64,000 nt of DNA from Candidatus Latescibacterota bacterium. GTDB lineage: Bacteria; Krumholzibacteriota; Krumholzibacteriia; WVZY01. Shown piece by piece: positions 1 through 42,765 of this stretch; position 1 is the stretch's first letter, and each line of letters starts with the position of its first letter. Made by a program: the position numbers and the translations under genes. Where the stretch lies: NCBI GenBank assembly GCA_963791045.1, contig CAWBQK010000002.1, positions 1 through 64,000 on the forward strand, written 5' to 3'. Below the pieces are notes generated by a model. That model was not told the origin of the DNA, ran no database searches, and saw only the letters and a list, made by a program, of their open reading frames with translations.

Positions 1-2416
1 ATGAACGAAGCCGAAACCAGAGCCGAACACATCGACCCCGCGCTGAAGGCGGCGGGCTGGGGCGTGGTCGAGGGCAGCCGCATCCGGCGCGAATACCCCA
101 TCACGCCGGGCCGGATCGAAGGGCTGGGCCGGCGCGGCAAGCCGCTGATCGCCGACTATGTGCTGGTCTACCGCAACACCAAGCTGGCGGTGGTCGAGGC
201 CAAGGCGTGGGATCAGGCGCTGACCGAAGGCGTCGGCGCAGGCCAAGAACTACGCGGGCAAGCTGGCGATCCGCTTCACCTACGCCACCAACGGCCAGGG
301 CATCTACGGCATCGACATGGAGACCGGCAAGGAAGGCGAGATTGCGGCCTACCCCACGCCGGAGCAGCTCTGGGCGCTGACCTTTGCCAAGGAGGACGCC
401 TGGCGCGACCGCTTCGCCGCCGTGCCCTTCGAGGACAAGGGCGGCAGCCATCCGTCCCGCTACTACCAGGACATCGCCGTCGAGCGGGTGCTGGAGGCCA
501 TCGCCGCCGGACAAGCAGCGCATCCTGCTGACCCTGGCCACCGGCACGGGCAAGACCTTCATCGCCTTCCAGATCGCCTGGAAGCTGTTCCACAGCCGCT
601 GGAACCTGATCGACTGGAAGAAGGGGCGAGCCGACCCGGCGTCCGCGCATCCTGTTCCTGGCCGACCGCAACATCCTCGCCAACCAGGCGTTACAACGCC
701 TTCTCCGCCTTCCCGGAGGATGCGCTGGTGCGGATCGCCCCGGACGACATCCGCAAGAAGGGCAAGGTGCCGAAGAACGGCAGCCTCTTCTTCACCATCT
801 TCCAGACCTTCATGAGCGGCCCGCCCAAGAGACGGCGAATCCCAGCCCGTATTTCGGCGAGTACCCGCCGGACTTCTTCGATTTCATCGTCATCGACGAG
901 TGCCATCGCGGCGGCGCCAACGACGAGAGCAACTGGCGCGGCATCATGGACTACTTCGCCCCGGCGGTGCAGCTCGGCCTCACCGCCACGCCCAAGCGCA
1001 AGGACAACGTGGACACCTACGCCTACTTCGGCGAGCCGGTCTACATCTACTCGCTCAAGGAAGGCATCAACGACGGCTTCCTGACCCCGTTCAAGGTGCG
1101 CCAGATCGCCACCACGCTGGATGAATACGTCTACACGCCCGACGACACGGTGGTGGAGGGCGAGATCGAGGCCGGCAAGCGTCTACGAGGAAGAAGGACT
1201 TCAACAGGATCATCGAGATCAAGGAGCGGGAGGCGAACCGGGTCAAGCTGTTCATGGAGCAGATCGACCAGCGCGAGAAGACGCTCGTCTTCTGCGCGAC
1301 CCAGGCCCACGCGCTGGCCGTGCGCGACCTCATCAACCAGATGAAGACCAGCACAGACCCCAACTACTGCCAGCGGGTCACGGCCAACGACGGCGCGCTG
1401 GGCGAGCAGCACCTGCGCGACTTCCAGGACAACGAGAAGACCATCCCGACCATCCTGACCACCTCGCAGAAGCTCTCCACCGGCGTGGACGCCCGCAACA
1501 TCCGCAACATCGTCCTGATGCGCCCGATCAACTCGATGATCGAGTTCAAGCAGATCATCGGGCGCGGCACCCGGCTCTACGATGGCAAGGACTACTTCAC
1601 GATCTACGACTTCGTGAAGGCGCACCACCATTTCAGCGATCCGGAGTGGGACGGCGAGCCGCATCGAGCCGGAGACCTGCGACCAAGTGCGGCTGCGGCA
1701 GCCCCTGTGTCTGCGAGAAGCCGCCACCGCAGCCGTGCCCCGTCTGCGGCAAGCAGCCCTGCGAGTGCCCGAAGGAGCCGTGTCCAGGTCTGCGGCCAGC
1801 GACCCTGCGTCTGCAAGAAGAAGAGCAAGGCCAAGGTCAAGCTGGCCGACGGCAAGGAGCGAACCATCCAGCACATGATGTGCACCAGCTTCTGGCATCC
1901 CGACGGCACGCCCATGTCGGCGGCAGCAGTTCATGGAGCTGCTGTTCGGCAAACTGCCGGAGTTCTTCCAGGACGAGGATGAACTCCGAGCCATCTGGAG
2001 CGCACCGGACACCCGCAAGCGGCTGCTGGAAGGACTTGCGGAGAAGGGATTTGGGCGCGAGCAGTTGGCGGAGATGCAGAAGGATCATCGACGCCGAGAA
2101 GAGCGATCTCTTCGATGTCCTGGCCCATGTGGCCTATGCCGTCCCGCCCGTGACCCGCGAGGTTCGGGCCGCCAGTGCCAGGATCTACATCAACACCCAC
2201 TTCAGCGCGAAACAGCAGGCGTTTCTCGACTTTGTGCTCCAGCACTACGTGAGCGTCGGCGTTGAAGAACTGGACCAGGAGAAACTCACGCCCCTGCTGC
2301 GGCTCCGGTATCACGACTCCATTGCCGACGCCATCGCCGATCTTGGCCGCCCGGAGGAAATCGGAGCTATCTTCGCCGGATTCCAGCGGTCCTTGTATCA
2401 TGAGGCGGTTGCATGA
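1..2416 (+). CDS. hsdR: Type I restriction enzyme R subunit (EcoAI/EcoEI-like), split by indel errors
   Basis: N-term MNEAETRAEHIDPAL...ADYVL...VVEAK nuclease motif; Walker A LATGTGKT; IDECHRG; GLTATP; QIIGRGTR; EcoEI-R-like C-terminal domain; spread over several frames. Confidence 0.93.
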
Positions 2417-2432
2417 AAATCGGGAAAATACG

Positions 2433-2502
2433 GGCTAACAAGGGCTGCACCGGACGGCAATTCCGCTGCGCTCCATTGCTGCCGACGAGCTTGCCGTTAT
2501 TA
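2433..2502 (+). mobile_element. attC site 1
   Basis: R'' GGCTAAC (2433-2439), L'' GCTGCACCGG, central GGCAAT..ATTGCT stem, L' CCGACGAGC, R' GTTATTA (2496-2502). Confidence 0.85.
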
Positions 2503-2515
2503 TAGAAAGGCAGAT

Positions 2516-3703
2516 ATGAACAGATATGACCCGTTTTGGCAGCAGAGGGAGCTCGAGCGGCTCCTGGCTCAGACTAGGCCGACTTTCGACATCTTAAACA
2601 CACTCCCACGTTCGTTCTTTGACAGCATGCATCAGTTTGAGGAGTTGAGTCGGAAGTTCTCCCTTCCTCCGAGCTTTTTGACTGTCTCGGATGAGATAAT
2701 TCGGGCGATGGATTCGAGTAACTTGTACTCAAGCCTACCGGCATTTTCCCAAGTCGATCATGGAGTACTACGAACATTTGAGTCATTGCAGCAGCAGATG
2801 TCTTCTGCCTTTGCTGCGGTGAAGGGCATTGGCTCGACCCTCGATTCGATATCGAAAGCGATGGCGGACTCTCTAGTAGGGTCCGAGGCTCTAATTGGAG
2901 GGTTAGAGTTTCGACCAATGGACATGGCGGTTTTGACGAGAGCACATGATTCTTTTGAAAAATTCGCGTTGGGCAGGTTGAGTATTTCAAACACGGCGAG
3001 TGATATTTTTCGGGCGAATACATTATCTGCAATTGCTGAAGTTGCTCAGTTTTTGCCCGATCTCGCATACACATCCGAATTAAGCGTTCTTATGGCCGCA
3101 CCTGTGGTGGCGAAACTACAGGGATTGCCCAGGATGAATGTGTTTGAGGAGATCGATCTGGAGCTTGAGTGGCAAGATTTTCAAGTCCCAGATTTAGACA
3201 TTGCCGGTGCGGTTGAAGGATCGTCCGCATCGAAAATGTTAGAGGTTGGTGGGCGGTTGGTAAGGCTCGTATATGAAATCAATGTCGCGGCAGAACGATC
3301 CGGTGAGGGAAATATTTTTAAGCCAACTACCACGACCATGTATGCGTTCCATGTGGTCCCGACGACAGTCGCCTCGGAGGAAAGTCGATTTTTAGAAGTT
3401 GTAGACGCATTGTTCTTTCTGCTTTATGAGGGCAGTGGGGATGGTTCTCGGCTAACATCTAAGATTAATGGTCAGCGTCTTGGTGCGCTGTGGCTATTGA
3501 AATACCTTCGGCTTGGGGCGCGCCATGATCTTGACCACGGAACGGACTCTGGGGCCAAGAAAAACTGACAGGTCGGTACAGCCTATATGAGTTAATTTGG
3601 CAAACCAGTCCCGAGAGTGCGGGAAGACTGGCTTGCCGCCCAACGAGCTCTTTATGAGCGCGTAGTTGAAATGCTCGAGGATATTTGGTTTAACGGGCCT
3701 TAG
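2516..3703 (+). CDS. Cassette-borne hypothetical protein with C-terminal RxxxxH (HEPN-like) motif
   Basis: 350-aa ORF continuing after a frameshift near 3560-3600 to TAG at 3701-3703; LRLGARHDLDHG; bounded by attC1 and attC2. Confidence 0.65.
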
Positions 3704-3721
3704 TCGGGTCGAAGTGATTCC

Positions 3722-3820
3722 ATATAACAAGCGCTTTCAACTACCGATCGCGTTTGTCAGTGTCTTGTGGTGGCGCACAAGCCACGCCGGTCGCACTTGC
3801 AGGCGAAGCCAACGTTGGAT
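3722..3820 (+). mobile_element. attC site 2
   Basis: R'' ATATAAC (3722-3728), GCTTTCAACT / AGGCGAAGC arms, internal CTTGTG..CACAAG hairpin, R' GTTGGAT (3814-3820). Confidence 0.85.
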
Positions 3821-3840
3821 GCATAAGAGGAAACTAATCA

Positions 3841-5035
3841 ATGGCAAAGGTGAAAAAGAAGGATGTTCCTCCCCATATCGTCATTCCAGACACAAGTGTG
3901 CTCTGGCACGGCGACAAGAAATGTGTCGTTGCTCCAGTTTTTTCGACACCTTCTGGTTAAAGAACAGCAGCGAGTTCCATCTTGAGTTGGTGGTGCCTGC
4001 GGTGGTCAAGGGAGAACTGCTATTTCAACAGGTTGGCGTGGCACATCGAGCCACTGAGAAGGTCGGAGACCTCATGGCCAAAATAAGTACCATCTCGAAC
4101 CATAAGTACGCCAACAAAATCAAGCCAGACGACCTGAAGAGCAGGATAGAGACCCGTTTTGACAAATGGCTAGCAGTCTGCCATGGATCCCATAGAGGCG
4201 GTTCCTGTCAAACGAGTTGACTGGAACCGCCTCATATATGATTCGATATGGCGCGTGCCACCATTCGTTGACAAGGACGATAAGGATTTCGAAAAGGGCT
4301 TCCGAGACGCTCTCATTCTCGAAACCGTGGTTGAGTACTGTCGTCATCATGCAATACCTGACACCAGAATCGCGTTCGTCTGCGGCGACAAACTCCTTTG
4401 CGAGGCTGTTTCCGGTCGCCTGGCAGTTGATCAACGCTTTTCGGTCTATGAGTCGTTTCTTGATTTCGAATCCTATCTAAGCCTCACCAAGCAAAAACTC
4501 ACTGACCAGTTCATTCGCAACATATTGAGACGAGCTGGCTCAAAGTTCTTCACCAAAGGCGACGAATCATGCCTTGCTCGCAGGGCGGATGTTCCCGGCA
4601 AAATGCGGAAACAATTCCATCAGTATTTCAATGATCCTGCCTCTGCCCAGACTGATCCGATGGACATCCTATCCTCCATCGGTATCCAGTTCGGAGAAGA
4701 AGTGGAAGTATCTCTTAATGCAGGAATGAACTGGGTGGGCAGCACAGTTTTTGAACGCATCGAAAACAACAACACCTATTACTGGAAGACTACAGTCACT
4801 TTCGCACAGCTCTTCCAAAGAACAGAAACGCAATATGGAGGCATAGGCTTGGCTGGCATTACGGAAGTGACCAAGCAGCGAGTCTTGGTGCTTCCCGTAA
4901 CGGTCAAGTGGCGTGCCCGCGTAACAACTGACGCGCGGTTCCATGATATCGAGACAGAGAATCTGACATTGGGCGAAAAGGACTCCCGCGCTCCACGGAT
5001 GAAACCAGAAGTCCTTCGACCTGCGGAACATCAAC
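3841..5035 (+). CDS. PIN-domain protein (DUF4935-like), cassette-borne, frameshifted; end approximate
   Basis: ATG 3841 after GAGG; IVIPDTSVL, VVPAVVKGEL, KGFRDALILET, FVCGDKLL acidic PIN motifs. Confidence 0.75.
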
Positions 5036-5106
5036 GAAGCTATGGACAGCGACAAGGAAACGCACCTTCGCACCGCTCATGCTTCACGTCATGGAAGACG
5101 TTATAT
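5029..5106 (+). mobile_element. attC site 3
   Basis: R'' CATCAAC (probably one base short), TATGGAC / GTCATG arms, R' GTTATAT (5100-5106), next ATG at 5126. Confidence 0.72.
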
Positions 5107-5125
5107 GGCTTGAAGGGAATGCAAT

Positions 5126-6539
5126 ATGCAGGACTACTCACAAATGTACTCAACTATGTCCGATTATGAAAATCACTACGATCCCAGCTGGTTTATAGAA
5201 TACCCTCAAGTGGATCGAGAGTACATTTGGACATACCCGATTGCGCTTAGAGAAATGACTGGCCAGGCACTCTGGAACTCAACTAAGGATAACTTCGCTT
5301 CCAAGGAACTTTCTCTATACATTCATGTTCCGTATTGTCGCGCCGATTGCCCATTTTGCGCATTTATGAGAATACCGGCAAAATCTTCTCTCGATCTCAC
5401 CAATTATGCCGAATGCCTTTCATCTGAGATCAGGATGTACGGCGGCATTCAAGGGCCGACCACCTCAATGTAATCTCTGTATACTTCGGTGGAGGAACGG
5501 CCAGTTCTTCTTCAAAGCCTCATATCGCGATGGTTTTGGAGTCCATTAACAAATCTTTCAATGTCTCTGACGATGTCGAAACAACCATCGAGTGCCACCC
5601 TGACGATGTCGATGACCGCTATTTAGTCGATCTCAAATAGATTGGAATAAATCGCATCTCATTTGGCGTTCAATCCTTTCAAACTCGATTCTTGAAAGCT
5701 ATCGGTAGAAAGCAGGACTGCAAGCATTCACGGAATATCGTCAAGAAAGCTGTCGATATGGGCTTCCATTCCGTGTCCGTTGATCTCATGTACCGCTTAC
5801 CTGGGCAATCACTACTGGATCTGGAATCGGACCTCAATGACATGGCTGGTATGGGGATTCATTCCATTAGTGCATAAGCCTGGAAGGGTCGGCGACCCGA
5901 CTCGAATCTTCAAAGAAGTTCCAGCCATCGGATGAAGCCGATTTGGAAATGTTCGATTTCATACGGGAAGCCCTTCATCCATGGGTTTCCTACATATCGC
6001 TCAACCAGATTATGCACTGCCGGGTCACGAAAAATCGCTATCTCATGAACCTTTGGCGAGCACCGCAGGCTCACAATTTAGGCATTGGAGCAGGCGCTTT
6101 CAGCGGCCATTTTGCGGGCCACACGTTTTGCAACGTGCACTCGCCAGATGAATACTGCGAAACTGTCAAAGGTGGCCTTTTGCCTGTCATGCTTGGTCAA
6201 GCGATTGATCACAGAGAGGCGTTAGCTCGATATTTCGCTTTGGGAATTCGCTGTCTCATTATTCCGTTGGGTGATTTCAGCGATATCTTCGGAATTGCAG
6301 CAAAAGATGTCTTTGGCCAACAGTTCGATACTCTCAATCGACTTGGTCTTGTGGAATTCTTCAATGACGAGATGCGGATAACCAAGCTTGGTGAGTACTA
6401 TGTGGACAATATTTCAAAGCATTTCTATTCGGAAATGTGCAAAGGCAAAAAGCAACCCTGGGGTTGTTATCTCCAGCATCTAAAACCCAAGTCCTACTTC
6501 TCAATTGAGGCGGGACAAATCACGAAAAAGGAGGACTGA
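5126..6539 (+). CDS. HemN-like (class C) radical SAM enzyme, split by errors
   Basis: YIHVPYCRADCPFC (CxxxCxxC); YFGGGTAS; NRISFGVQSF; SVDLMYRLPGQ; LGIGAGAFS; HemN_C-like C-terminus. Confidence 0.88.
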
Positions 6540-6542
6540 CAC

Positions 6543-7028
6543 ATGAGCAGCAAGCTCGAAACAATAGTCACCGCTTGGAATGAATCTAGGACCATGACAA
6601 TGGAACTATCACACATCCTGACCCAAGAACAGCTCAGAAAGAAACAGGGGAGGCCTGGACTTAACACCGTTGGAATGCATTTATTGGAAATGGCGGACGT
6701 AACCCTGGCATACGCTGAGTCAATTGCGACAGGGAAGTTATCGTTCGGTAGGGTAAACGATAGCTACGCTGACGATCTACAGACACCGGACAAAGTAACG
6801 GCAGCGCTAACCGAGTCATCCGAAGCAATCGAAAGGAATATAAACGCAGCAGCCGGAGACCTGAAGATCAATGCCTTCGGAGAAGAGGTTTCGCTTGAAG
6901 AGATGCTGCTCACATTGATAAGGCATGAAAACATACATCATGGACAGATCATCGCCTTTTCGTACGCATCCAGCATCCCCATGCCGCAGTCATCGCATGA
7001 CAATTGGGCATTGCCAATGGATGAATGA
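6543..7028 (+). CDS. DinB-family protein
   Basis: 161 aa helical; TVGMHLLEMA and LIRHENIHHGQI motifs; RBS GGAGGA. Confidence 0.8.
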   Translation: MSSKLETIVTAWNESRTMTMELSHILTQEQLRKKQGRPGLNTVGMHLLEMADVTLAYAESIATGKLSFGRVNDSYADDLQTPDKVTAALTESSEAIERNINAAAGDLKINAFGEEVSLEEMLLTLIRHENIHHGQIIAFSYASSIPMPQSSHDNWALPMDE

Positions 7029-7855
7029 ATATGTGCACGAGAGCACAAAATGGAATGTTGAAAGCTATGGTGCACACTTGGGCAAGCAATCAATGAGTAA
7101 GGATTTAGATCAGCGTCACGAATGCTCAACGGAAATTATAGTCCACGATTGGCATCTCACTGGGATAGGCTTCGGTGACACACATTACGGGCCAACGGCC
7201 GAGTTTTTGGTCGCCGAGTTAAAATCCCGCGGTCTGCGGCCCGGATATTCGAAATTGGATGTGGCACAGGTCTGCTTGCCGAGAACCTGATTTCTGCAGG
7301 GGCAGAGTTCGTTGGATTATGGGATCGCTCCGGAGAAATGAGGAAAGTGGCGGAGGGACGGCTCAAACAATATTGGGGTGAGCCTGTTGAATGGATAAAT
7401 CCTGAGTCTCAGAGTGAAGATCAATTATGCTTCGGAGCATATTTAGGACAACGTATGTCACCATCGTTGTATGAGTTGGGCTCAATAATCGAGCATTCAG
7501 GTAAGATTCTAATTCAAGGAGGAATTCTTCTCCTTAGCTATTGGACGGGACGTGCGGCCAATTCCTTCAATGTAAATGACTGGCCGCCCGTGGACATTTC
7601 CATCAGACCCGAGAGTTCATGTATGAGGCTGAATAGTTGGGACTTTCTGGGACGAATGGGATCGATCATTGGCGCTTCGCCTGTCTGTATGTTGAAACCT
7701 CCGGAATGAAAGTCGAATTTGGTGAGTTTGAAATGCCTCGGTTGAAGGATGCAGACGTTGCAAACGAACTTATCGCTGCTGGATTTAAGCCATTTGAGAT
7801 ACCAAGGGAACAGATGGATTCAATTGGAATCACAGTTGCAGGAATAAAATGTTAA
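7021..7855 (+). CDS. Class I SAM-dependent methyltransferase, frameshifted
   Basis: EIGCGTG motif at ~7250-7272, DRSGEM, GGILLLS; overlaps the DinB stop. Confidence 0.7.
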
Positions 7856-7878
7856 AAGCTTCTGAGGGTTAATTCGCA

Positions 7879-9040
7879 ATGGCGTATCAAGTTCTGCTAT
7901 GCATGTCACATGACTTTTCATATTACAGTGTTTCCAGTGTATTGGCAATTGAAGAAGCACTGATCGAAGCCGGACATGAATGCGCGATTGTGGCCAATCA
8001 ATCACATATTGACCGCTTGCCTCAAAGAGATGGAATGCTTTTCTCGACACCATCGATTGATATGGAATCGCTGATCTCGTGCCCATTTGTATTGTCGTCC
8101 TGCGCAGATTATCTTACAGCAATCGGATTCGACAATTTCGAAAAGATCGAATTGACATATTCATCAATTGCAAATGCAATTGAGCGCTATAGGCCGGACG
8201 TCATTATTGCAGACTTTTGCGCCATAGGCTCAATCGCTGCTTGTGCGTATCAAGTACCCTTGATTACAACTCTTAGGTGGACCTACCATGCGACGCATCC
8301 AGAAAACCAGAATGATAAACATCCACGCGCGACAGCGGCACTTTATGCGTTCAACAGGCTTCTATCCAAGTTACATCTTGAAAAAACGCACAATCTGGCG
8401 GAGCTGATGTACCGTGACTCAAGCCGACTGATTGTTCCTTCCATTCCGATACTTGAACCGGGAATTGTAGATGGCCCCGATGTCCATTGGTTAGGGCCGC
8501 TCATATCGCGAAGATTGGAACACAATGGCAACACGGGGGGCTGGTCGGATAGCGGCCGCAAGGAGAAGAGACTGTACGTCTACCTTGATCCAGCCGTAAT
8601 CGACATGTCGGAGCAATGTAGGTTGCTATCTGAGGCGTTTGACGACTCGGACTGGAGCATCAGGGTTTCTGTTTCCAGCGAATTAAAAAAGTGCCCGAGC
8701 AAGAAGACAAAGTACTCAATTACATGGTTCGCCCCCCAGGTCACGTATGATTGAATTGGCGGATACGTACATTACTCATTGTGGTTCGAATTCAACGCAA
8801 ATGTCGATTCTCAAGCTCACTCCAGTGGTCGCTATTCCCGGAGACAGTTTGGAGCGACAGTTCAATGCGACCGTTTTGGAGCGATTGGGCTTAGCAAAAA
8901 TATTGGAATTGGGGGAGGAAGGTTGCACCCCCAGGATGATACGAGACTTATGTGAATGCGCTCAATCCCTCTCTCCGAATGAGAATGCAGTGAGCTGGAG
9001 CAACCACATTCAGAGATGTAAAGGTGCTCGTCGTTCCTGA
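7879..9040 (+). CDS. GT-B (GT1/MGT-like) glycosyltransferase, frameshifted
   Basis: AGHEC, RPDVIIADF, WLGPL, ITHCGSNS...PVVAIP...ERQFNA nucleotide-sugar-binding motif. Confidence 0.82.
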
Positions 9041-9068
9041 ATAGTTGCGCGCACATAGTTAGGACGAC

Positions 9069-11116
9069 ATGAAAGAATTCGATACGGTCAACAGAACTCT
9101 GAAATCGCTTGCTAGTAAAAAAACTACCACCAAGGAACATCGTGCAATCGCAAAGGAACTCGCGCACGCAAAGGATGGTGCTTGGTTGCTTGAGAATTTT
9201 GTTGATGCTGCGGTCATAAGCGGTGAGATGAACTCATTGAAGATTGCTTGCTGGATACTTCCAGGATGTGGCAACAGTGATGTGAAGGGCGTATGGAGAC
9301 GCTTTCTGTCAATCGCCGAATCAGATATGTGGGAAGTTCGGAAGAGGCCTCACATTGTTTTAGATTGCTGATCAAAGACAACCCGACGTACATTTCCACC
9401 GTTGAAAGGGGCCTAGGCAACTTAACAGTCAACCAGCTTCGCGCAATTGCAGTTGGATATGTTCGTTTCATGTCGGAAAGATACACAATCGAAAGAAAGA
9501 TCCTGCGTCGGATTGTCGAGAAGTGCCTGTCAACGGAAGACCGGAAGCTTCAGCAGCTTATCGCCCGGTTCGTGATCGGCGATTATCTTTTCTATTGTTT
9601 GCCACAGGAGGCGTTGCGTTTTACTGAATCATGGGCAAGAGATGGAAACTCTGCAGAAAGAGTGAGGCTATCAGCCGAATCGTTGGACGCCTCAAGCGCA
9701 TCGCAGTTCATGGGGCAATTTATTCATATCTTATCCACCATGATGCGATCGACAGATAAGTCGACAAGGCAAGCCGCCACTAGGTCGGCTAGGCGACACT
9801 TGATCGGTGGATATAAATACGATATTTCCAACTCAAGAGGAAGAGCCACGCTTAGTTCTTTACCTACTGATGACCCAATTCAGTCCTTTCGTGACCCTAA
9901 CTGGCTAAGACAGACATATGGGCAGCAGGTTATTGACAAATTGATTGAAATCGCCGTTGAAGTACCTACTCCGTTCACAGTCATCTGTGAAGGCTTGATG
10001 ACCTGCCAAATCAAGGCATTGCAAAGCAAATTACCCACGGACTTTGCTCTTCGGTATGGTGGTAAGGCATGGTTTCACCCTTGGATCGTTTCAGAGGTGA
10101 AGGCTTGCGGGCTTCCTGTATGTGTCTCAAGTAGATATGAGGCTCAGATCGCTCTTCTGCTTGGCTTTGAACCCCAATCTGTTCACTTCATGCAACCTGG
10201 TTGTGATGAATCCGACATATTGGAGGCTCAACGGAACGGTCTTCACATCTCCATCGACAGTGAATGGCAGGCCGATGTCATCTGTAGGTCTGCCGACTCA
10301 TCGAAGAATCGTGAAATCGGTTTGAGGCTTTCATTGTCTTATATCCCAGCCGCAGACGAGGCAGTTGTCCGTTCGACTTCTCCACTTAGGTTTGGACTGT
10401 CAATGGAATCAATCCCGCGCATCGTCGAAAAATTGCGCCGCCATGGATACAGAATAACTGAAGTGATGGGACATGCCGGCTCATTGATTTGGCAACCCAC
10501 TGCCTTTCTGTCCATTGTCAGAGAATTGGCCAACGTGGTTCCCTATCTTAATGACCCTGTCGTATTGAATATCGGAGGAGGGCTCCCATTTTGCTATGTC
10601 GATGAATGTGATCAGATTGATATTACCGAGCTTTCCGACATTCTCCTAGAAGAACGTCAACTAATCATGTTGAGATCACGAAAAGATGTGACTATTGCAC
10701 TTGAACCCGCACGAATGCTTTCAACTCCATGCGCTCTTCAAGTAGCAAGGATTACCGATATAAAACAAAGTCATAATTCATCCCGATTCCTGTTCTGCGA
10801 CGCTGTTCTGGCCTCACTAGGACTAAGCTTGCCTGTATCGATTTTAAGCGCATCGGGGGGTGGAGAAGGTTGGAACAAAGAAGTCGTCGTTAGCAACCTA
10901 TGCGCTCCTGACGACTCAATTTCAGAACATGTTACAGGTGAAGCCCATGTTGGTGCCCTTGCCGTAATCGGAGGCGTCGGTAGCTACGTGCTTCCTTTGT
11001 CACATTCTCTGCAAGCGCAACCAAAGTCAACTGAAGTGCTATTGCGATCCTCTGGTAGTTGGGCAGTGTTGCGCAAGCCAGTCCCGAGTCTTGCATGCTT
11101 TCTGTATGCTCAATAA
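9069..11116 (+). CDS. HEAT-like repeat region apparently fused to a PLP-dependent type III (LysA-like) decarboxylase
   Basis: Helical N-term (WEVR, WARD); from ~9850 YGGKAW (PLP Lys), RFG, HAGS, NIGGG, EPAR, NLCAPDD, GSY. Confidence 0.75.
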
Positions 11117-11145
11117 GCGTCTTACCCAATAAATGAGAAAGAGAA

Positions 11146-12489
11146 ATGAATGGAATGGAACGCGATCAAAGCAGACAGTTGAGGGACATTCTGGTCCATG
11201 CATATAGACACACTCCCTTTTACCGTCAACAATTTAGTGATTGTGGTCTGACCGAGGGAGATCTATCACAATTTTCGATTTCCGATCTGGTCAGAGTCCC
11301 ATCGGTTGATGAGCAATCACTTCGAGAACATTGGAATGATATGTCCGTGATTGATGGGAGTTCCTTTCGTGTAACCACAAGCGGTGGAACGACTGGAAAG
11401 CCAAAGCTGATGGTGAGGACAAGAAATGATTGGGAGAGCAGCCTTGACTCACACATAAAACTAATGAAGATTTGCGGGTTGAATGAATCAGATCGTATAT
11501 TAATCGCTCTTCCATTTGATATATGGGCTATCGGCTACCTAACTCTTGAGTCGTGCAAGCTTATGAATTGTTTTGCAGTCCCCATAGGGGTGCGTATGAA
11601 TGATGACATTACACTTGATTATGCCGAACGATTCAACATCTCAGCCGTAATTACAAGTCCTTCACGATGGGTTCATCTATCAAGGCAGCGACCAGACCTT
11701 CTGAAAAAGCTCGCTGGACTAAAAATGGTATTGGCAGGAGAACCGATCGCGGAAGCTGATAGGAAGAATCTCAATCAAGCATGGAACGGTACTGTTAGTA
11801 GTCTTTACGGTTCAGAGGAAACAGATGGGCTGGGGGCCGAATGCGGAATGGGCAAGACAGGCATGCACGTGTTGTCTGATAGATTTATTTTCGAAATTGC
11901 AGGAGATACATCACCAAGCACATCTTCAATTAACTCCGGATTTGGCGAACTTCTTGTAACATCACTGTATCACAAAGGGACACCGCTGATTAGGTACAGG
12001 CTAGGCGATCTCGTTGATATTTCAATTGAGGATTGCCCATGCGGGTGTGAGCTCCCCAAGATCAGAGTGTTTGGCAAGTGCGGAGAAGTCCTAGTATTTC
12101 GGGATGCTACGCGGGTGTTTGGTTACCAACTCGACGAATCGTTGACTGAAGCTATTGGGTCACAGGTAATGTTTCAAGCAGTAGCGTTAGACGGTGAAAA
12201 CGATACAGAAATATTAGAAATCAGAATTTCTGACGATTTATCGAATGAAGTAATCCAAGCATTATTACATAATGTGTCGTTGATTTCCCTCGAACTTCAA
12301 GAGTCAATTCAGATGGGTGTTTTAACGGTCAGGGTAAAAACAGGGAATCTGCTCTTTGAATGCACGAATAAGGGAAAACAGCGCAGACTCCTGGATCTTC
12401 GGAAACATCCGATATCAAATGTAATGGTTAGCAGAAATACAAAAGAAATATCACTTCAGTTTAAACGTGAGGATAAGGAAATCAAGTAA
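11146..12489 (+). CDS. Phenylacetate-CoA ligase (PaaK)-family adenylate-forming enzyme
   Basis: HTPFY, TSGGTTGKPK P-loop, AGEP, YGSEE, GELLVTSL...PLIRYRLGD, KGKQRRLLDLR. Confidence 0.88.
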   Translation: MNGMERDQSRQLRDILVHAYRHTPFYRQQFSDCGLTEGDLSQFSISDLVRVPSVDEQSLREHWNDMSVIDGSSFRVTTSGGTTGKPKLMVRTRNDWESSLDSHIKLMKICGLNESDRILIALPFDIWAIGYLTLESCKLMNCFAVPIGVRMNDDITLDYAERFNISAVITSPSRWVHLSRQRPDLLKKLAGLKMVLAGEPIAEADRKNLNQAWNGTVSSLYGSEETDGLGAECGMGKTGMHVLSDRFIFEIAGDTSPSTSSINSGFGELLVTSLYHKGTPLIRYRLGDLVDISIEDCPCGCELPKIRVFGKCGEVLVFRDATRVFGYQLDESLTEAIGSQVMFQAVALDGENDTEILEIRISDDLSNEVIQALLHNVSLISLELQESIQMGVLTVRVKTGNLLFECTNKGKQRRLLDLRKHPISNVMVSRNTKEISLQFKREDKEIK

Positions 12490-12689
12490 AGACAGCCATA
12501 TACCCACCGGCCATGCGATGCGTTGGGCAGACCAGAAGAGGAAGGCTGCCAAGTCAGAGCGATAAATAATAATGTAAACGCAGAATATATTCATACAGAT
12601 GAAAGCTCTTCAGTAAGCAGTCATGCCGATCAGCAACTAAAAAGATCAATTGGAAAGGTTTGACAAAGTTTCTACTGCTTGAGAATGCG

Positions 12690-12749
12690 GTATAGCAAGG
12701 TTAATTCAGCCGATGCAAGAAACCGTGTGGCTGATTAATAGCGTTAGTC
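12690..12749 (+). mobile_element. attC site 4 (degenerate R'')
   Basis: GTATAGC-AAGG-TTAATTCAGCCG...TGGCTGATTAA-TAGC-GTTAGTC; long arm with one extrahelical T; short attC type. Confidence 0.78.
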
Positions 12750-12863
12750 CCGAGAGTTCTGATCGAAAAAGAGCTCGGGGAAAATCACCTGTCGCCCATC
12801 AAGCGTCTGTCAACCACCCCACCCCTTGTACCCACCCCGCAGCCCCCTCCCAGATATACCCCC

Positions 12864-12893
12864 TTGCCATACCAGACAATTGTCTGCTATTCT
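12864..12893 (+). promoter_or_regulatory. Putative sigma70 promoter upstream of dnaE2 with palindromic operator
   Basis: TTGCCA-18-TATTCT with TGn extension; perfect palindrome CAGACAATTGTCTG (12873-12886) in the spacer. Confidence 0.5.
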
Positions 12894-13118: not shown

Positions 13119-16100
13119 ATGATACGACCGGCATACACATCTTCGTACGCACCGCTGTGGTGCAAGTCGAACTATTCCTTTTTGGAAGGCGCGAGTCATC
13201 CGGAGGAACTGGTGGAGGAAGCGGCGCGCCTGGGGCTGCGCTCGATCGCGATAACAGACCGCGACGGTGTGTACGGTATTGTGCGCGCGCATGTGAAGGC
13301 GAAGGAGTGCGGCGTTCATCTGATCATCGGCTCGGAAGATCACACTCGACGACCAGTCGACAATCATCCTGCTGGCAATGAACGCAAAGGGCTACGCGAA
13401 TCTGTGCGAGCTGATTTCAGACGGGCGGCTTCGTCACCCAAAAGGCGAATCGTCGGTGACATGGAAGGAACTCTGCGCAAGAGCCGAAGGGCTGATCGCA
13501 TTATGGGGCGGTGAGCGCAGTCTAATCGCGGGCCCCACGCGATCCGCTGTTCATCGCAAAAGAACTTAAAGGAAGCGTTCGGCGACCGGCTGTACGCAGC
13601 TGATCGCACGCCACCGCCGCGCGGAAGAAGCAAAGGAAGAACACCGCGTGCGCATCCGCGCAATACGGTACAAGCTCCCAACAGTCGCCGCAACGGAAGT
13701 GCTCTACCACACACACGAACGCCGCGATCTGCAGGACGTGCTGACGTGCATCAAGCACGGGGTGACGCTTTCAACGGCGGGCCGCGTGACAAAACCCAAC
13801 GCCGAGCACGCGCTAAAACCCCCGTTCGCCTTTCGCATGCTCTATGAAGACGACCCGCTTACTGGTCGCGCAAACGGAAGAGATCGCAGCACGGTGCACG
13901 TTTTCACTCGACGAGATCCGTTACCGCTACCCATCGGAAAAGCTTCCCGACGGCTCGACCTCATCGGACTATCTCCGAACACTGACATACGATGGCGCCA
14001 AAGAGCGCTACCCGCGAAGCAACGCACCCGAACGGGATTCCACCCAACGTAAAAGCCCAATTGGAAAAAGAACTCGGTGTGATCGGCGACCTGGAGTACG
14101 ACGGGTATTTCTTGACGATGTGGGAGATCGTGCAGTTCTGCCGCCGCGAACACATCCTGTGCCAGGGCCGCGGGTCGGCGGCGAACTCGGCGGTGTGCTA
14201 CTGCCTGGGGATCACCGCGGTCGACCCGGTGCAGATGGATCTTCTTTTCGAGCGCTTCATGTCGAAGGAACGCGCCGAGCCGCCCGACATCGATCTCGAC
14301 ATCGAGCACAACCGCCGCGAAGAGGTGATCCAGTACGTCTACGCGAAGTACGGCCGGACGCACGCGGCGATGGCGGCGAACGTGGTCCGCTACCGCGCCC
14401 GCTCGGCGGTGCGCGAGGTGGGCAAGGTCCTCGAAGTCCCCGACACGACACTCGACCGCGTCGCCAAACTCCTGTCGCACTACGACGACATCACGCGCGA
14501 CTCGCTCGACCGCGCGGGGTTCGACCCCGACAGCCACGTCCACCAGCACCTCGCGCGGCTCGCCGCCGAGATCCAGGACTTTCCGCGGCACCTCTCGATC
14601 CACCCGGGAGGCTTCCTCCTCGGCCACAAACCGGTCCGCCAGCTCGTCCCGATCGAGAACGCGACGATGCCCGGCCGCACGGTGATCCAGTGGGACAAGG
14701 AGGACCTCGAGTCGCTCGGGCTTTTCAAGGTCGACCTCCTGGGCCTGGGGATGCTCACGGTGCTCAACCGCTCGTTCGATCTGATCGAAACGCACTACGG
14801 CAAACGCATCACGATGGCCGACGTCCCCGACGGCGACGAACCGACATTCGAGATGATCCGCCGCGCCGACACGGTCGGCATATTTCAGATCGAGAGCCGC
14901 GCGCAGATGGCGATGCTCCCGCGCCTCAGCCCCAAAAACTATTACGACCTCGTGATCGAGGTGAGCATCGTCCGCCCGGGCCCGATCACCGGCGGGATGG
15001 TTCACCCGTACCTTCGCCGGCGCAATGGCGAAGAAGAAATCACCTACCCGCACCCGTCTCTCGAACCGGTGTTGAAGAAAACACTCGGGCGTCCCGCTTT
15101 TTCAGGAGCAGGTGATGAAGCTTGCCGTGATCGCCGCCGACTACACACCGGGCGAGGCCGATCAGCTGCGGCGCGACATGGCGGCGTGGCGGCGCACGGG
15201 GCGTCTCGAACGCCACCGCGAACGCCTGATCATGCGGATGCAGGCGAAGGGAATTGAGAAGGAGTTCGCGGAGCGGGTGTTCGAGCAGATCCGGGGGTTT
15301 GGCGATTACGGTTTTCCCGAGAGTCACGCGGCGAGCTTTGCGTACATCGCGTATGTGTCCGCGTGGCTCAAATGCCATTACCCGGAGGTGTTTGTGTGCG
15401 CGCTCTTGAACGCGCAGCCGATGGGGTTTTATTCGCCGGCGACGCTCATCGACGATGCGAAGCGGCACAAGCTCACGGTTCTGCCGGTGGATGTGGCGCG
15501 GAGCCGGTGGGATTGTACGCTTGGAGGTGTGCGGGGAGCGCGCGGCGGGGAATGGGAATGGCAGTGTCCCGTAATGGCGGCGCGCCCATCGAACGGCAAT
15601 GGCAATGGTGGCGGTTCGTCGAACGGCCATGCGCAGCGCATCGCGGCGGCAATCGCGGCAACGTGGCGGCAACGGCAACAACGGGCACAAGCCACACGCA
15701 CCCTCACGCCAACCCCTCGCCGTTCGTGTGGGCCTCCGCTACGTCCGCGGTCTCCACGAAGAGTCGGCCGCAGGATCGAGGCCGCGCAACACAACCGCGC
15801 GTTCACATCGATTGATGATTTCATCACGCGAACACAACTAGAAGACGGCACACTCACGCGGCTCGCCGAGGCCGGCGCCTTCGAGCGATTCAAAAAAGAG
15901 CGACGCAGCGCGTTGTGGCACATCCGCGGGTTCGACCGGACGACCGCGCCGCGGCTAAAACTAAAAGACAACGAACCGCGCGTTCGCTTCGAAGACTTGA
16001 CCCAATTCGAAACCATCGGGTGGGACTACGACATGACCGGGCACAGCACGCGCGGACATCCGCTCTCGCCCTTTCGTGAGGAGCTACGCGCGATGGGCCT

Positions 16101-16419
16101 TCCCGACGCAAAGACCGTCACCGCGATGCGCAACAAACAAAGAGTGAGCTACGCGGGGATGGTGATCAACCGCCAGCGGCCAGGGACGGCGAAGGGCGTG
16201 GTGTTTATGACGCTCGAAGACGAGACGGGATTCGTCAATATAGTTATATGGAAGAACGTATTCAAAAAACATATGGTGATCGCCAAGACCTCATCTTTCC
16301 TCGGTGTAACGGGGACTTTACAGTCCGACGGCGGTGTGGTGCACCTCGTTGCGCAATCTCTATGGGACCCAACAACTAAAGAGCGTCCGCGGCGCCGGCG
16401 CAGCCGCGACTTTCATTGA
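13119..16419 (+). CDS. dnaE2: Error-prone DNA polymerase DnaE2/ImuC, frameshifted
   Basis: [63 protein letters not shown]-terminal SRDFH signature. Confidence 0.95.
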
Positions 16420-37984: not shown

Positions 37985-38036
37985 TATTTCGCGCCTTCGA
38001 GTTCAGGCCGGTGCTCATTCGACTCAACCCTTTCAA

Positions 38037-38120
38037 TACAACATATATATTGTAATGATGTCAAGGACAAACAACATATATATTGTACTTATGCGCCCGA
38101 GTTACAACATATATGTTGTA
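38037..38120. promoter_or_regulatory. Three 18-bp palindromic operator-like sites
   Basis: WACAACATATATRTTGTA at 38037, 38070 and 38103; TTGACA on the - strand at 38064-38059. Confidence 0.75.
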
Positions 38121-38165
38121 TGGCAGGCTCAAGCCGGCGTTGAGCCTGGCTTTGGCGGTCGGGGG

Positions 38166-40992: not shown

Positions 40993-42765
40993 TTGACCTT
41001 TGATCAGATATTTTTGCTGAGCCTGCTCGGGGTCGTCCTCATTATGTTTGTTTGGGGACGGTGGCGCTATGACGTCGTTGCAATTGGTGCAATGCTCCTT
41101 GTCGCGGTCGTCGGCATCATTCCGGGCAAAGACGTTTTTCTTGGGTTCGGGCACCCGGCGACATTGACCGTGGCGATGGTGCTTATAATAAGCCGAGGCC
41201 TGTTGAATTCCGGTGTTGTTGACCTCATGGCCGAGCACGTGCTTCGGCCGCTCAAATCAACCACCGGGCAGATCGGTATTGTGTCGTTCGTGGCGGCGGG
41301 GCTTTCCGCCATTATGAACAATGTCGGTGCACTTGCGCTATTGATGCCGGCCGCCATCCGTTCCGCCACCAAAGCCGAGCGCCCACCGGCGGCCATCTTG
41401 ATGCCGCTGTCCTTCGCATCGATCCTTGGCGGGATGCTGACACTGATCGGAACACCACCAAACATTATCATCGCAGCCATTCGCGAGGAGACGTCAGGTT
41501 CGGCATTCAAAATGTTTGATTTCACACCGGTGGGCGGCGGCGTCGCGCTGGCCGGGGTCCTTTTTGTGTCGTTGGTGGGCTGGCGGTTGATTCCCAAGAA
41601 ACGTCGTGCACGGTTGTCGTCTGCAGAACTATTCAATATCAAAGACTACGTGACCGAAGCCATCGTCCTCGAGAAAAGTCCGCTCATCGGACGACGGCTT
41701 AGTGAGATTGACGACGAAGCGAACGAAAAGGAGTCAGACCTTCTCGGTGTCGTCAGAAACGACGTGCGCCTCGACATGCGGGCCGGGGGACGAACATGTC
41801 TGGTCGGCGACGTGCTGCTTCTCGAAGCGGCGCCGGAACCACTCGAAAGACTCCTCAAAGACTGGGGACTCGAGACCGTCTCGGCGGGCGACGGCGAAAA
41901 GCGACCGTCCAACTTGAGTCTCGCGGAAGTCGTGATCCCTCCGCGCAGCCGCCTGTTGGGGCGAAACGTCGCGTCGCTCGGGCTCCGCCGCCATTACGAT
42001 GTGAACCTCATCGCTGTGTCGCGCGCAAGCAAACCGTTTCGGGGGCGTCTGCGCTCGTTTCGTTTTGAAACGGGAGATGTCGTTCTTCTCGAAGGCGACG
42101 CGGACAACCTGCCCGAGGCTATCGCTGAGCTGGGCCTGCTGCCGCTTGCTGAACGTAATCTGCGTGTCGGCCGACCCAGGCGGGCGCTTCTTGCGAGCAC
42201 GCTGTTCGTGTTCGCGATCGCGCTCGCATCAATCGGTGTCCTCAGCCTTCCCGTCGCACTCGGCGGTGCGGCGCTCGCGATGATTCTTACCGGCCTGGTG
42301 CCGGTCCGTGAGATGTACGACCACATCGATTGGCCGGTGATCGTTCTTCTGGGCGCAATGATTCCCGTGGGACAAGCGCTCGCCGTCACCGGCACAACCG
42401 AGCTGATTGCCTCGAGCATCGTCACCCACTCGGCGGGGCTGCCGCCCGTGGCGCTGCTCACCATCATCCTCGTTCTTACCATGACCTTGTCCGACGTTAT
42501 AAACAATGCGGCGACCGCGGTGGTGATGGCACCGATCGCGCTCATGATCGCTCAACAACTCGGTGTCAATCCGGACACCTTTCTGATGGCCGTCGCGATT
42601 GGAGCGTCGAGCGCATTCTTGACGCCGATCGGACATCAGAACAACGCACTGATTCTCGGACCGGGCGGGTATCGTTTCGGCGACTATTGGCGGATGGGTC
42701 TCCCGCTCGAAATTCTGATCGTGCTCGTCGCGATACCGATGCTTCTTCTCGTCTGGCCTCTTTAA
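40993..42765 (+). CDS. SLC13-family permease with TrkA-C domains
   Basis: MNNVGA, LTLIGTPPN, INNAAT, LTPIGHQNN, GGYRFGDY. Confidence 0.9.
   Translation: MTFDQIFLLSLLGVVLIMFVWGRWRYDVVAIGAMLLVAVVGIIPGKDVFLGFGHPATLTVAMVLIISRGLLNSGVVDLMAEHVLRPLKSTTGQIGIVSFVAAGLSAIMNNVGALALLMPAAIRSATKAERPPAAILMPLSFASILGGMLTLIGTPPNIIIAAIREETSGSAFKMFDFTPVGGGVALAGVLFVSLVGWRLIPKKRRARLSSAELFNIKDYVTEAIVLEKSPLIGRRLSEIDDEANEKESDLLGVVRNDVRLDMRAGGRTCLVGDVLLLEAAPEPLERLLKDWGLETVSAGDGEKRPSNLSLAEVVIPPRSRLLGRNVASLGLRRHYDVNLIAVSRASKPFRGRLRSFRFETGDVVLLEGDADNLPEAIAELGLLPLAERNLRVGRPRRALLASTLFVFAIALASIGVLSLPVALGGAALAMILTGLVPVREMYDHIDWPVIVLLGAMIPVGQALAVTGTTELIASSIVTHSAGLPPVALLTIILVLTMTLSDVINNAATAVVMAPIALMIAQQLGVNPDTFLMAVAIGASSAFLTPIGHQNNALILGPGGYRFGDYWRMGLPLEILIVLVAIPMLLLVWPL

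Follow-up and report, generated by a model that had tools for sequence, protein, structure and literature searches.

Whether an integron can carry a whole operon as one cassette is the question raised by a stretch of 64,000 nucleotides (nt) from a Candidatus Latescibacterota bacterium, in which six genes of a putative biosynthetic operon lie within an island of low guanine plus cytosine (GC) content. Integron cassettes are usually thought of as single short genes, and a whole operon in one interval between attC sites would, if true, widen what integrons can move. The stretch, here called the window, makes up the first 64 kb of contig C2 in a genome bin of 3.66 Mb and 21 contigs (completeness 80.9%, contamination 5.8%). 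The island lies at ~2430-12800 (~2433-12749 as an element), with GC of 0.45-0.50 over 3-13 kb and 0.59-0.67 in the flanks, and its right boundary is a step from 0.41-0.48 to 0.55-0.67 past 12800. A first-pass annotation of the same DNA had proposed that the operon is one 7.6-kb cassette (5101-12744) bounded by two sites that it named attC3 and attC4. Taken in full, with an operon that is intact in the living organism, frameshifts that are assembly errors and excision as a circle by the integrase, we judge this proposal unlikely. Our preferred reading, to which we give an even chance, is that the island is the eroded remnant of an integron array and that the operon lies in a single inter-attC interval of 7.6-8.9 kb.

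The operon comprises the following genes:

5126-6539, + strand, HemN-like (class C type) radical S-adenosylmethionine (SAM) enzyme; PF04055 31.2 bits, PF06969 23.8 bits (cut-off 24)
6543-7028, + strand, DinB-family protein, intact; PF05163 37.7 bits, PF12867 30.1 bits
~7021-7855, + strand, class I SAM methyltransferase; weak Methyltransf_12/25/28 matches below cut-offs, CpaM-like match of 33.9 bits
7879-9040, + strand, GT1 enzyme, macrolide-glycosyltransferase-like, GT-B; TIGR01426 MGT, PF13439 24.3 bits
9069-11116, + strand, helical-repeat (HEAT/AlkD-like) domain of ~290 amino acids (aa) with a fold-type III pyridoxal 5'-phosphate (PLP) decarboxylase; PF02784 69.7 bits (cut-off 23.4)
11146-12489, + strand, PaaK/F390-synthetase-like adenylate-forming ligase, intact; PF00501 42.6 bits

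All six are on the + strand, with junctions of +3, -8 (an overlap), +23, +28 and +29 nt. The annotation's description of six co-directional, tightly coupled genes of these families is thus borne out by Pfam and NCBIfam matches and by gaps of at most 29 nt.

Certain and candidate attC sites of the island

A folding-based scan beside six integrase genes (intI) of the phylum recovered classic arrays in three genomes, with 14, 13 and 6 sites of 94-142 nt (most ~98-117) carrying R'' RYCTAAC and R' GTTAGRY, and these served as seeds for covariance models. Model R1 was built from those 33 sites, R2 from 54 sites in 20 genomes using L-box pairs only, and R3 from the R2 alignment with the R-box pairs added; all training sites are genuine attC in arrays 3' of intI in other genomes of the phylum. 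Outside its training sites R1 gave 20 and 89 matches at other intI-side loci, and most of the 89 fell in intI-strand arrays, many others being opposite-strand echoes of the same sites. The noise level was read from 100 kb of control DNA at the same settings, where the top full-length match reached 12.2 bits (R2) and 13.5 bits (R3), and from a chance match inside a gene on the - strand of the window (41907-41961), at 14.8 bits (R2) and 15.7 bits (R3). An attC consensus common to genera of the phylum reads GnCTAAC..GCTTGCAGCnGAC...GCAGCTGAAGC..GTTAGnn.

Four sites of the window come into question:

2433-2502, + strand, marginal attC-like site, R'' GGCTAAC, R' GTTATTA, in the gap between an hsdR-like gene and the next open reading frame (ORF), at the left GC boundary
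3722-3820, + strand, certain attC relic by sequence, R'' ATATAAC ... R' GTTGGAT, found by three covariance models and nhmmer
5029-5106, + strand, attC3 of the first-pass annotation, ending in GTTATAT; R2 6.5 bits (E 4.1 in 8.9 kb), R1 at most 2.4 bits
12690-12749, + strand, attC4 of the first-pass annotation, marginal and short, R'' GTATAGC, R' GTTAGTC, at the right GC boundary

With R2, sites 3722-3820, 12690-12749 and 2433-2502 rank first to third among eight matches in the window, all three on the + strand. Judged by its sequence, 3722-3820 is certainly an attC, with 35.1 bits from R1 (E 6e-7), 50.1 bits from R2 (E 1.6e-11), 49.6 bits from R3 and 41.2 bits from nhmmer. Genome-wide it is the only match at E <= 1 and the only significant one among the 524 that nhmmer listed. 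Its sequence has been kept and its pairing lost, the predicted fold being -15.9 kcal/mol (z -0.5), and real attC sites of ~100 nt in the phylum fold at -33 to -50 kcal/mol.

The two sites at the island's edges are marginal. attC4 scored 18.2 bits with R2 (E 0.016), 14.3 bits with R3 (E 0.25) and 7.0 bits with R1, and site 2433-2502 scored 15.8 bits (E 0.07), 15.2 bits (E 0.14) and 10.6 bits, respectively. Since chance matches reach 12.2-15.7 bits, both stand at or just above the noise ceiling. Their setting speaks for them, as both are intergenic, lie on the strand of the certain attC at the island's two GC boundaries, and are followed by a ribosome-binding site (RBS) and an ATG; with a background of about one such match per 50-150 kb, this coincidence with the edges is unlikely to be due to chance.

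Several observations on these edge sites weigh against our preferred reading. Their scores depend on the model, falling to the R3 values given above once the R-box pairs are enforced, and with R3 the chance match at 41907-41961 scores above both. Neither is listed by nhmmer, their R1 scores are low, and the E-values of these attC models are rough by the tool's own statement. attC4 has kept an L stem of 10 bp with one bulged T, and its R'' is without the conserved AAC; its predicted fold is -4.9 kcal/mol (z -1.1), which 28 of 200 shuffles equalled or bettered. As a downstream boundary, attC4 is marginal, with an R2 score above a noise ceiling of 12-16 bits and R3 and R1 scores that are not. The match between the leading core GTTATAT and the attC4 core GTATAGC, also cited by the first-pass annotation, is arithmetically right (5/7 positions) but weak evidence.

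attC3, the proposed upstream boundary, did not pass the covariance-model check, its scores being within noise, and it is absent from the genome-wide nhmmer list. Its predicted fold is -12.3 kcal/mol (z -2.3), with the R box unpaired. Some features nonetheless favour it, and with it a one-cassette unit. With R2 and filters off it is the best match in the interval 3821-12689 (the next score 5.3, 5.2 and 5.1 bits), which also upholds the claim that the operon holds no internal attC. It lies on the expected strand, exactly between the end of a PIN-like gene and the start of the radical SAM gene, and each half is similar to the phylum consensus, with the order of the two as expected. Its GTTATAT is followed after 19 nt by an ATG, a layout shared with the upstream sites, where R' precedes the ATG by 13 nt (after 2502) and 21 nt (after 3820). 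We consider it possible that attC3 is a decayed attC, with the balance tilting against it. Four real short attCs fold at -15.9 to -24.8 kcal/mol (z -2.7 to -8.8), site 2433-2502 folds at -13.3 kcal/mol (z -0.9), and none of the four window sites folds like a working attC. The array thus appears eroded, and recombination at it is now unlikely.

The extent of the unit changes accordingly. The certain attC offers a cassette 5' end at 3814/3815, which gives a unit of 8.9 kb that includes the PIN-like gene, in place of the ~7.6 kb first proposed. In our preferred reading, the operon and the PIN-like gene would fill the last interval (3815-12744, 8.9 kb), and the operon alone would fill 7.6 kb if 5029-5106 is a decayed attC. 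Within 10.3 kb the island would then hold one certain and two or three marginal attC sites. If attC4 is real, the operon lies in one exceptional interval, because no internal attC was found. In nine arrays of the phylum, 71 attC-attC spacings reached at most 5028 nt, the median being 800 nt, and the window spacings, 8968 nt from the certain attC to attC4 and 7661 nt from attC3 to attC4, far exceed all others seen in the phylum. Passages of PMC5371416 give a median cassette coding sequence of 575 bp for mobile integrons and 362 bp for chromosomal integrons, and point out that a missed attC inflates apparent cassette length.

So long a spacing is also what would be expected if the operon were not borne on a cassette at all, having arrived on an insertion sequence (IS) or composite transposon or by homologous recombination of a larger island, beside a one- or two-cassette remnant and with 12690-12749 and 5029-5106 as chance look-alikes. 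We regard this as rather unlikely. It gains from the R3 score of attC4, which is below that of the chance match, and from the missing support of R1 and nhmmer for that site. It loses from the lack of any transposase, IS end or flanking direct or inverted repeat around the operon, the two ends of which share only 8-9-mers, and from the position of the two marginal matches, on one strand, intergenic and at both GC boundaries of an island that carries the only certain attC. The GC content is uniform over the three putative units, which a block from a single donor fits equally well, a further point against a cassette array. Capture of the operon as a single cassette we treat as an evenly balanced matter.

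An integron integrase is present in the genome (TIGR02249, 385.6 bits, cut-off 265), encoded at the far left end of contig C21 on the - strand and truncated by the contig end. Past intI, contig C21 showed no attC-like repeats. The gene and the window are on separate contigs, which again tells against the array reading. Across the phylum, intI was found in 91 of 208 species genomes, mostly at contig ends, and in all arrays examined the attC sites follow the 3' side of intI and share its strand, an inverted arrangement known from Treponema denticola. Given this arrangement, a reverse-complemented C21 followed by C2 would be compatible in orientation. The island would in our preferred reading have been acquired horizontally, and the array remnant would represent either the distal end of the C21 integrase's array or a stand-alone attC cluster. 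In the complete genome G202, of the same family, a lone attC (locus L058, 13364-13462, 42.5 bits) lies 6.6 kb from intI with no array, which suggests that reduced or eroded integrons may be common in that family.

The locus resembles sedentary chromosomal integrons and clusters of attC sites lacking integrases (CALINs) in its lineage-type attC, its same-strand units of attC, RBS and ORF, and an intI in the genome. Like eroded arrays, it has foreign content mostly without assigned function, and both its attC sites and its genes are eroded; genetic erosion of arrays is described for Xanthomonas in parts of PMC5371416. It differs from known integron arrays in an interval of 7.6-8.9 kb with a six-gene operon and in an integrase that is physically unlinked. 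The presence of integron material in the window is supported by the certain attC at 3722-3820 and the intI in the genome. The upstream boundary of the cassette first described is not, as attC3 fails the covariance models, and no site folds like a real attC.

A scan method and a palindrome were also rejected. A rule-based attC scan (RYYYAAC...GTTRRRY plus L stem) returned one palindrome, both strands counted, against 2-6 in shuffles, and genome-wide 114 matches without clusters; it was discarded as insensitive because it also missed real arrays. Among its finds was an AT-rich palindrome of 86 nt at 38036-38121 (ATACAAC...GTTGTAT, inner stem perfect), which by the attC models is not attC-like (R3 9.0 bits).

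Lesions in the first 16 kb

Four of the six operon genes are broken as assembled, by at least eight frameshifts and one TAG stop. The radical SAM gene has four frameshifts and an in-frame TAG at 5638-5640 (by tblastn with its homologue P0129), and the methyltransferase has at least two frameshifts (ORF overlaps 7179-7290 and 7637-7709). The GT1 gene has at least one within 8687-8754, where there is a C6 run, and its TIGR01426 match is split accordingly, with model positions 82-265 in the first piece and 284-352 in the second. The decarboxylase gene has one in a G-run near 9338-9347. Every frameshifted gene of the window (hsdR, the PIN-like gene, the four operon genes and dnaE2) lies in its first ~16.4 kb, and window genes from 18 kb on, of 550-710 aa, are intact. 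Elsewhere in the genome there are 118 open frames of at least 900 aa, and the lesions are thus local to the first ~16 kb of the contig.

Many of the frameshifts are at homopolymer runs, including both of those in the PIN-like gene, that of the decarboxylase and probably that of the GT1 gene, and the lesions are possibly artefacts. This counts against the erosion in our preferred reading and for the view that an undamaged cassette was misread, which also draws on the confinement of the lesions to a contig end and on the amino acid identity to homologues, which is equal in broken (73-77%) and intact genes (76-79%). Two observations oppose that view. At least one frameshift (5871-5877) and the TAG at 5638-5640 are outside homopolymer runs, and attC pairing, also in the certain attC, was lost through substitutions, which points to real decay. 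Long-ORF cover averages 0.84 at contig ends and 0.88 in contig interiors (Mann-Whitney p 0.03), so that a contig-end effect on quality is weakly indicated. Cover by long ORFs is likewise low at the starts of contigs C10, C13 and C15. Overall, real decay and a poorly supported contig end have about even odds as the source of the lesions.

The same data bear on whether the whole locus is an artefact of assembly or binning, in which a foreign low-GC fragment was joined to the contig end and low coverage there produced the indels. We consider this very unlikely. Such an origin would suit a bin that is incomplete, contaminated and in 21 contigs, an island confined to the first 13 kb of its contig with lesions that end at ~16.4 kb, and the lower long-ORF cover of contig ends. 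It is opposed by host-like GC-rich sequence on both sides of the island within one contig, by an attC at 3722-3820 of the type found in the phylum's own arrays, and by an integrase in the same bin.

Under the reading of an eroded array remnant, the element as assembled would be a fossil, and if the indels are assembly errors it would be an intact operon within a decayed array. Present-day mobility is unlikely, and unless the indels are assembly errors it is doubtful that the operon functions in this genome.

Relatives of the operon and proposed chemistry

Gene identities were assigned at the level of families. The radical SAM protein has the CxxxCxxC motif (CRADCPFC) and HemN/HutW/HemW-type NCBIfam matches, and in three frames it is 73-77% identical to P0129 (471 aa), which has precomputed matches to both PF04055 and PF06969. 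Its closest solved relatives are NocN (E 4.5e-33), a class C methylase, and HemN (E 1e-31). The presumed start of the methyltransferase overlaps the DinB stop by 8 nt. Full-length homologues of the decarboxylase have 681-682 aa, its closest solved relatives are diaminopimelate (DAP), D-Orn/Lys and BtrK decarboxylases, and residues 307-555 align with DAP decarboxylase at a VIA-align Z of 20.5 (root-mean-square deviation (rmsd) 3.2, 235 aligned); equivalog NCBIfam models for it all remained under their cut-offs. The ligase has homologues of 74-87% identity and NCBIfam matches of the DVU_1553/PaaK type under equivalog cut-offs. Its C-terminus runs ~21 aa past the stop of its relatives, and relative to positions 1526-1529 of locus L009 (described below) a 5-nt duplication-like insertion (AATGT/AATGG, 12486-12489) removes the stop.

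The N-terminal ~290 aa of the decarboxylase gave no Pfam match even at E 10, and hhalign of the decarboxylase family with AlkD-like proteins returned a probability of 0.15%. In structural comparison, residues 2-165 aligned with AlkD2 (Z 12.8, rmsd 3.2, 153 aligned), where a Z of ~13 is advised for helical repeats, and further matches, also under the advised level, were AlkC (Z 10.1) and another PF08713-type protein (Z 9.5). The structure model has a mean predicted local distance difference test (pLDDT) score of 51.5 and is confident for residues 1-130 only, and language-model neighbours in the Atlas were PF08713/HEAT clusters at 0.86-0.87 (lead threshold 0.9). On this modelled and weak evidence, the domain may be AlkD/HEAT-like.

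Close relatives of the operon are few. A collection of 5.8 billion clustered proteins contains just three close relatives of the decarboxylase (73-76% identical), encoded on contigs of 13143, 7681 and 9554 nt; relatives of the ligase (74-79%) occur on contigs of the same three lengths, and the 90% cluster of the radical SAM protein has members on these and on a fourth contig of 4082 nt. The radical SAM, decarboxylase and ligase genes, that is the first and the last two of the operon, thus occur together in at least three other places, all metagenomic contigs, in line with the first-pass expectation that the gene set recurs elsewhere. The 7681-nt contig has space for six genes only, and its length, close to the 7644 nt of the unit first proposed, would be expected if assembly broke at flanking repeats, a hint in favour of the one-cassette proposal. 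Searches for the decarboxylase were negative in 207 further genomes of the phylum, in the genome with locus L009 and, by single-sequence patterns, in genome contigs, and a metagenome scan for the 4082-nt JGI contig with the radical SAM gene gave only loci of 26-28% identity. The operon is a conserved, older, self-contained unit that is present elsewhere, and judged from these sequence searches it is very rare.

Locus L009, from a Planctomycetota bin and the one closely related locus that was examined, has the ligase alone, with 74% nucleotide identity over 1263 nt and without an attC, which argues against cassette carriage. There the ligase is followed by a fragment of an rve transposase (integrase core) and by an AAA_15/OLD-TOPRIM ATPase with a UvrD-family helicase (2156-5607), a pair that we take to be Gabija-like. 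A ligase beside an rve fragment and a defence-type gene pair is what movement by other means than cassettes would lead one to expect, but the homology between L009 and the window ends at the ligase stop codon.

A wider family of clusters was sampled by 16 loci (L010-L025) with distant relatives of the ligase, 28-35% identical. They come from Rhizomicrobium, Nostoc, Desmonostoc, Hormoscilla, Nitrospira, Polyangia and Clostridia, and further from Enterococcus, Gammaproteobacteria, Desulfobacteraceae, Saccharibacteria, Minisyncoccia and Archaeoglobaceae. Of the 16, 15 have a HemN-like radical SAM gene with 32-41% identity to P0129, in one case as a contig-end fragment, and in 14 a DinB gene stands beside the ligase and radical SAM genes (27-35% identical). 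The core of ligase, radical SAM and DinB genes recurs in 14 of the 16 and is shared by the window operon. A class I methyltransferase of low identity occurs in 13/16 loci, an AlkD-family gene (PF08713) in 12/16, a pair of dihydroorotate-dehydrogenase-like and creatininase-like genes in 9/16, and a pyruvoyl arginine decarboxylase, in a compact form of the cluster, in 3/16. A large form of the cluster has a BATS-domain radical SAM gene together with the dihydroorotate-dehydrogenase-like and creatininase-like genes, and the Nostoc locus also has a tryptophan halogenase. The AlkD-like proteins of the 16 loci match solved AlkD (E 1.4e-14) and have an invariant W-x3-D and a later W, which may correspond to the catalytic residues of AlkD.

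Two results from these loci weigh against our preferred reading of the operon. The methyltransferase and HEAT domain of the window have no sequence match to those of the 16 loci, and in the 258 kb that these loci cover no attC match exceeded 12.6 bits, which is within noise; the latter is a limited test because the models were trained on one phylum. The absence of an attC match above noise in all 16 also suits an operon that was not cassette-borne. No description of the gene combination or of the cluster family was found in open-access papers and preprints, and the family of ligase, radical SAM and DinB genes is apparently widespread and undescribed.

From these families we infer a pathway in outline. 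The decarboxylase would convert a dibasic amino acid to an amine, and the PaaK-like ligase would adenylate a carboxylate and couple it to that amine. The radical SAM enzyme and the methyltransferase might together add a one-carbon unit, as a methyl or cyclopropane group, and the GT1 enzyme would glycosylate the product. DinB and the AlkD-like domain might serve reactivity or self-protection.

Among the known systems nearest to this gene set are the clusters for CC-1065 and yatakemycin (C10P/YtkT, C10Q, C10R5/YtkR2), in which, as in the window, a HemN-like radical SAM gene lies near a class I methyltransferase gene, with DinB between the two in the window. The parallel of C10P, C10Q, C10R5 and YtkR2 is drawn from portions of PMC6050322, PMC8626424 and PMC9570651, and the likeness is at family level. 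The first-pass analogy with C10P and C10Q is given some weight by the AlkD-family genes of 12 of the 16 related loci, which parallel the AlkD-type glycosylase C10R5/YtkR2, but the likeness of the N-terminal domain of the window decarboxylase, which would be the corresponding part here, is weak. The text seen of PMC9570651 also describes a step of decarboxylation and amino acid coupling in benzodipyrrole assembly, parallel to the window genes. There are clear differences, as the window cluster is far smaller than the Streptomyces clusters, has a GT1 enzyme, DinB and a PaaK-like ligase, and has its AlkD-like part fused to an enzyme and not free-standing; furthermore, the closest solved relatives of its radical SAM enzyme are NocN and HemN. 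In the available text of PMC6050322 no mention of a ligase or a decarboxylase was found, and that of PMC8626424, PMC10114718 and PMC6050322 had zero occurrences of ligase, DinB and F390.

The ligase is likewise comparable to PaaK/F390-synthetase-like ligases (BagE/FevW, FlxY and the DVU_1553 family), with which it shares a PF00501 core and matches at E 4e-39 to 9e-26. Its scores are far under the equivalog cut-offs (for example 134.5 versus 300 bits), and it should be seen as a member of the family only.

A further lead is the hypermodification of thymidine in phages, where amino acids attached to DNA are the substrates of a PLP decarboxylase and a radical SAM enzyme. Like those phage systems, the window module unites a decarboxylase and a radical SAM enzyme of these kinds with an enzyme of the glycosyltransferase type, and the lead is extended by a decarboxylase fused to a helical repeat of the nucleic-acid-binding type and by restriction- and nuclease-type neighbours. 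Unlike them, it has no DNA kinase or pyrophosphorylase.

A DNA-reactive product is a reasonable guess on this evidence, although less likely than not. Less probable still, and in our view quite unlikely, is the combined case in which an integron took up the pathway as a single cassette of 7.6-8.9 kb and its product is directed at DNA, either through a compact genotoxin or through enzymes that act on DNA itself. In the first variant, a genotoxin would be made with the help of a C10P/C10Q-like pair of radical SAM enzyme and methyltransferase and tolerated through the AlkD-like domain; in the second, the HEAT-like domain would hold the decarboxylase on a DNA-bound amino acid adduct. Were this one-cassette, DNA-directed case true, integrons would be vehicles for whole pathways, and a function would be revealed for a family of ligase, radical SAM and DinB clusters that extends from Cyanobacteria and Clostridia to bacteria of candidate phyla. 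For the carriage of a whole operon between two attC sites, the locus, being decayed and weakly bounded, is a lead and not a demonstration. More solid and reusable are two other results, namely the rare operon and the widespread family of ligase, radical SAM and DinB genes, often with AlkD. Because it parallels the genes that provide warhead and self-resistance in CC-1065 and yatakemycin, this family is a candidate for new DNA-reactive chemistry. The chemical-defence link that the first-pass annotation had drawn from the neighbouring genes gained nothing from PADLOC, to which none of nine proteins gave a match (0/9 at E <= 0.001).

Neighbouring genes and minor features

The genes on either side of the operon are:

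1-2416, + strand, C-terminal part of an hsdR-like type I restriction gene; PF08463 EcoEI_R_C, 64.9 bits
2516-3568, + strand, ORF of 350 aa without an assigned family, the content of a 1.3-kb unit closed by the attC at 3722-3820
3841-5169, + strand, PIN_12-like gene of a ~400-aa family; PF16289, 27.6 bits (cut-off 32, not reached)
13119-16419, + strand, GC-rich DnaE2-like polymerase gene with a PHP domain at its start; PF02811 49.5 bits

The hsdR-like gene is truncated by the contig start and spread over several frames as overlapping ORFs, with GC of 0.63-0.67. The 350-aa ORF had no Pfam, NCBIfam or PADLOC match, and its Atlas neighbours were unnamed clusters only, at 0.90-0.91. Neither an Rfam match nor a tRNA was found in the window.

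The PIN-like gene starts 21 nt past the certain attC and has 693 relatives, the best of which, P0132 (406 aa), is 66% identical. By tblastn P0132 aligns up to 5064, six residues before its own end, and from this alignment the natural end of the gene is probably near 5082. The same comparison places its two frameshifts at a T6 run near 3938 and a C3 run near 4189. Within the coding sequence, 4195-4233 is a near-perfect 17-bp inverted repeat with a 5-nt loop (-19.7 kcal/mol, z -7.3; 0 of 200 shuffles as good), which adjoins one of these frameshifts, and the residues coded by both arms are conserved in P0132.

The DnaE2-like gene belongs to the flank outside the island and is broken into successive overlapping ORFs in different frames. 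About 230 nt 5' of it, at 12869-12890, lies the palindrome ATACCAGACAATTGTCTGCTAT, with arms that are 92% complementary, which may be an operator.

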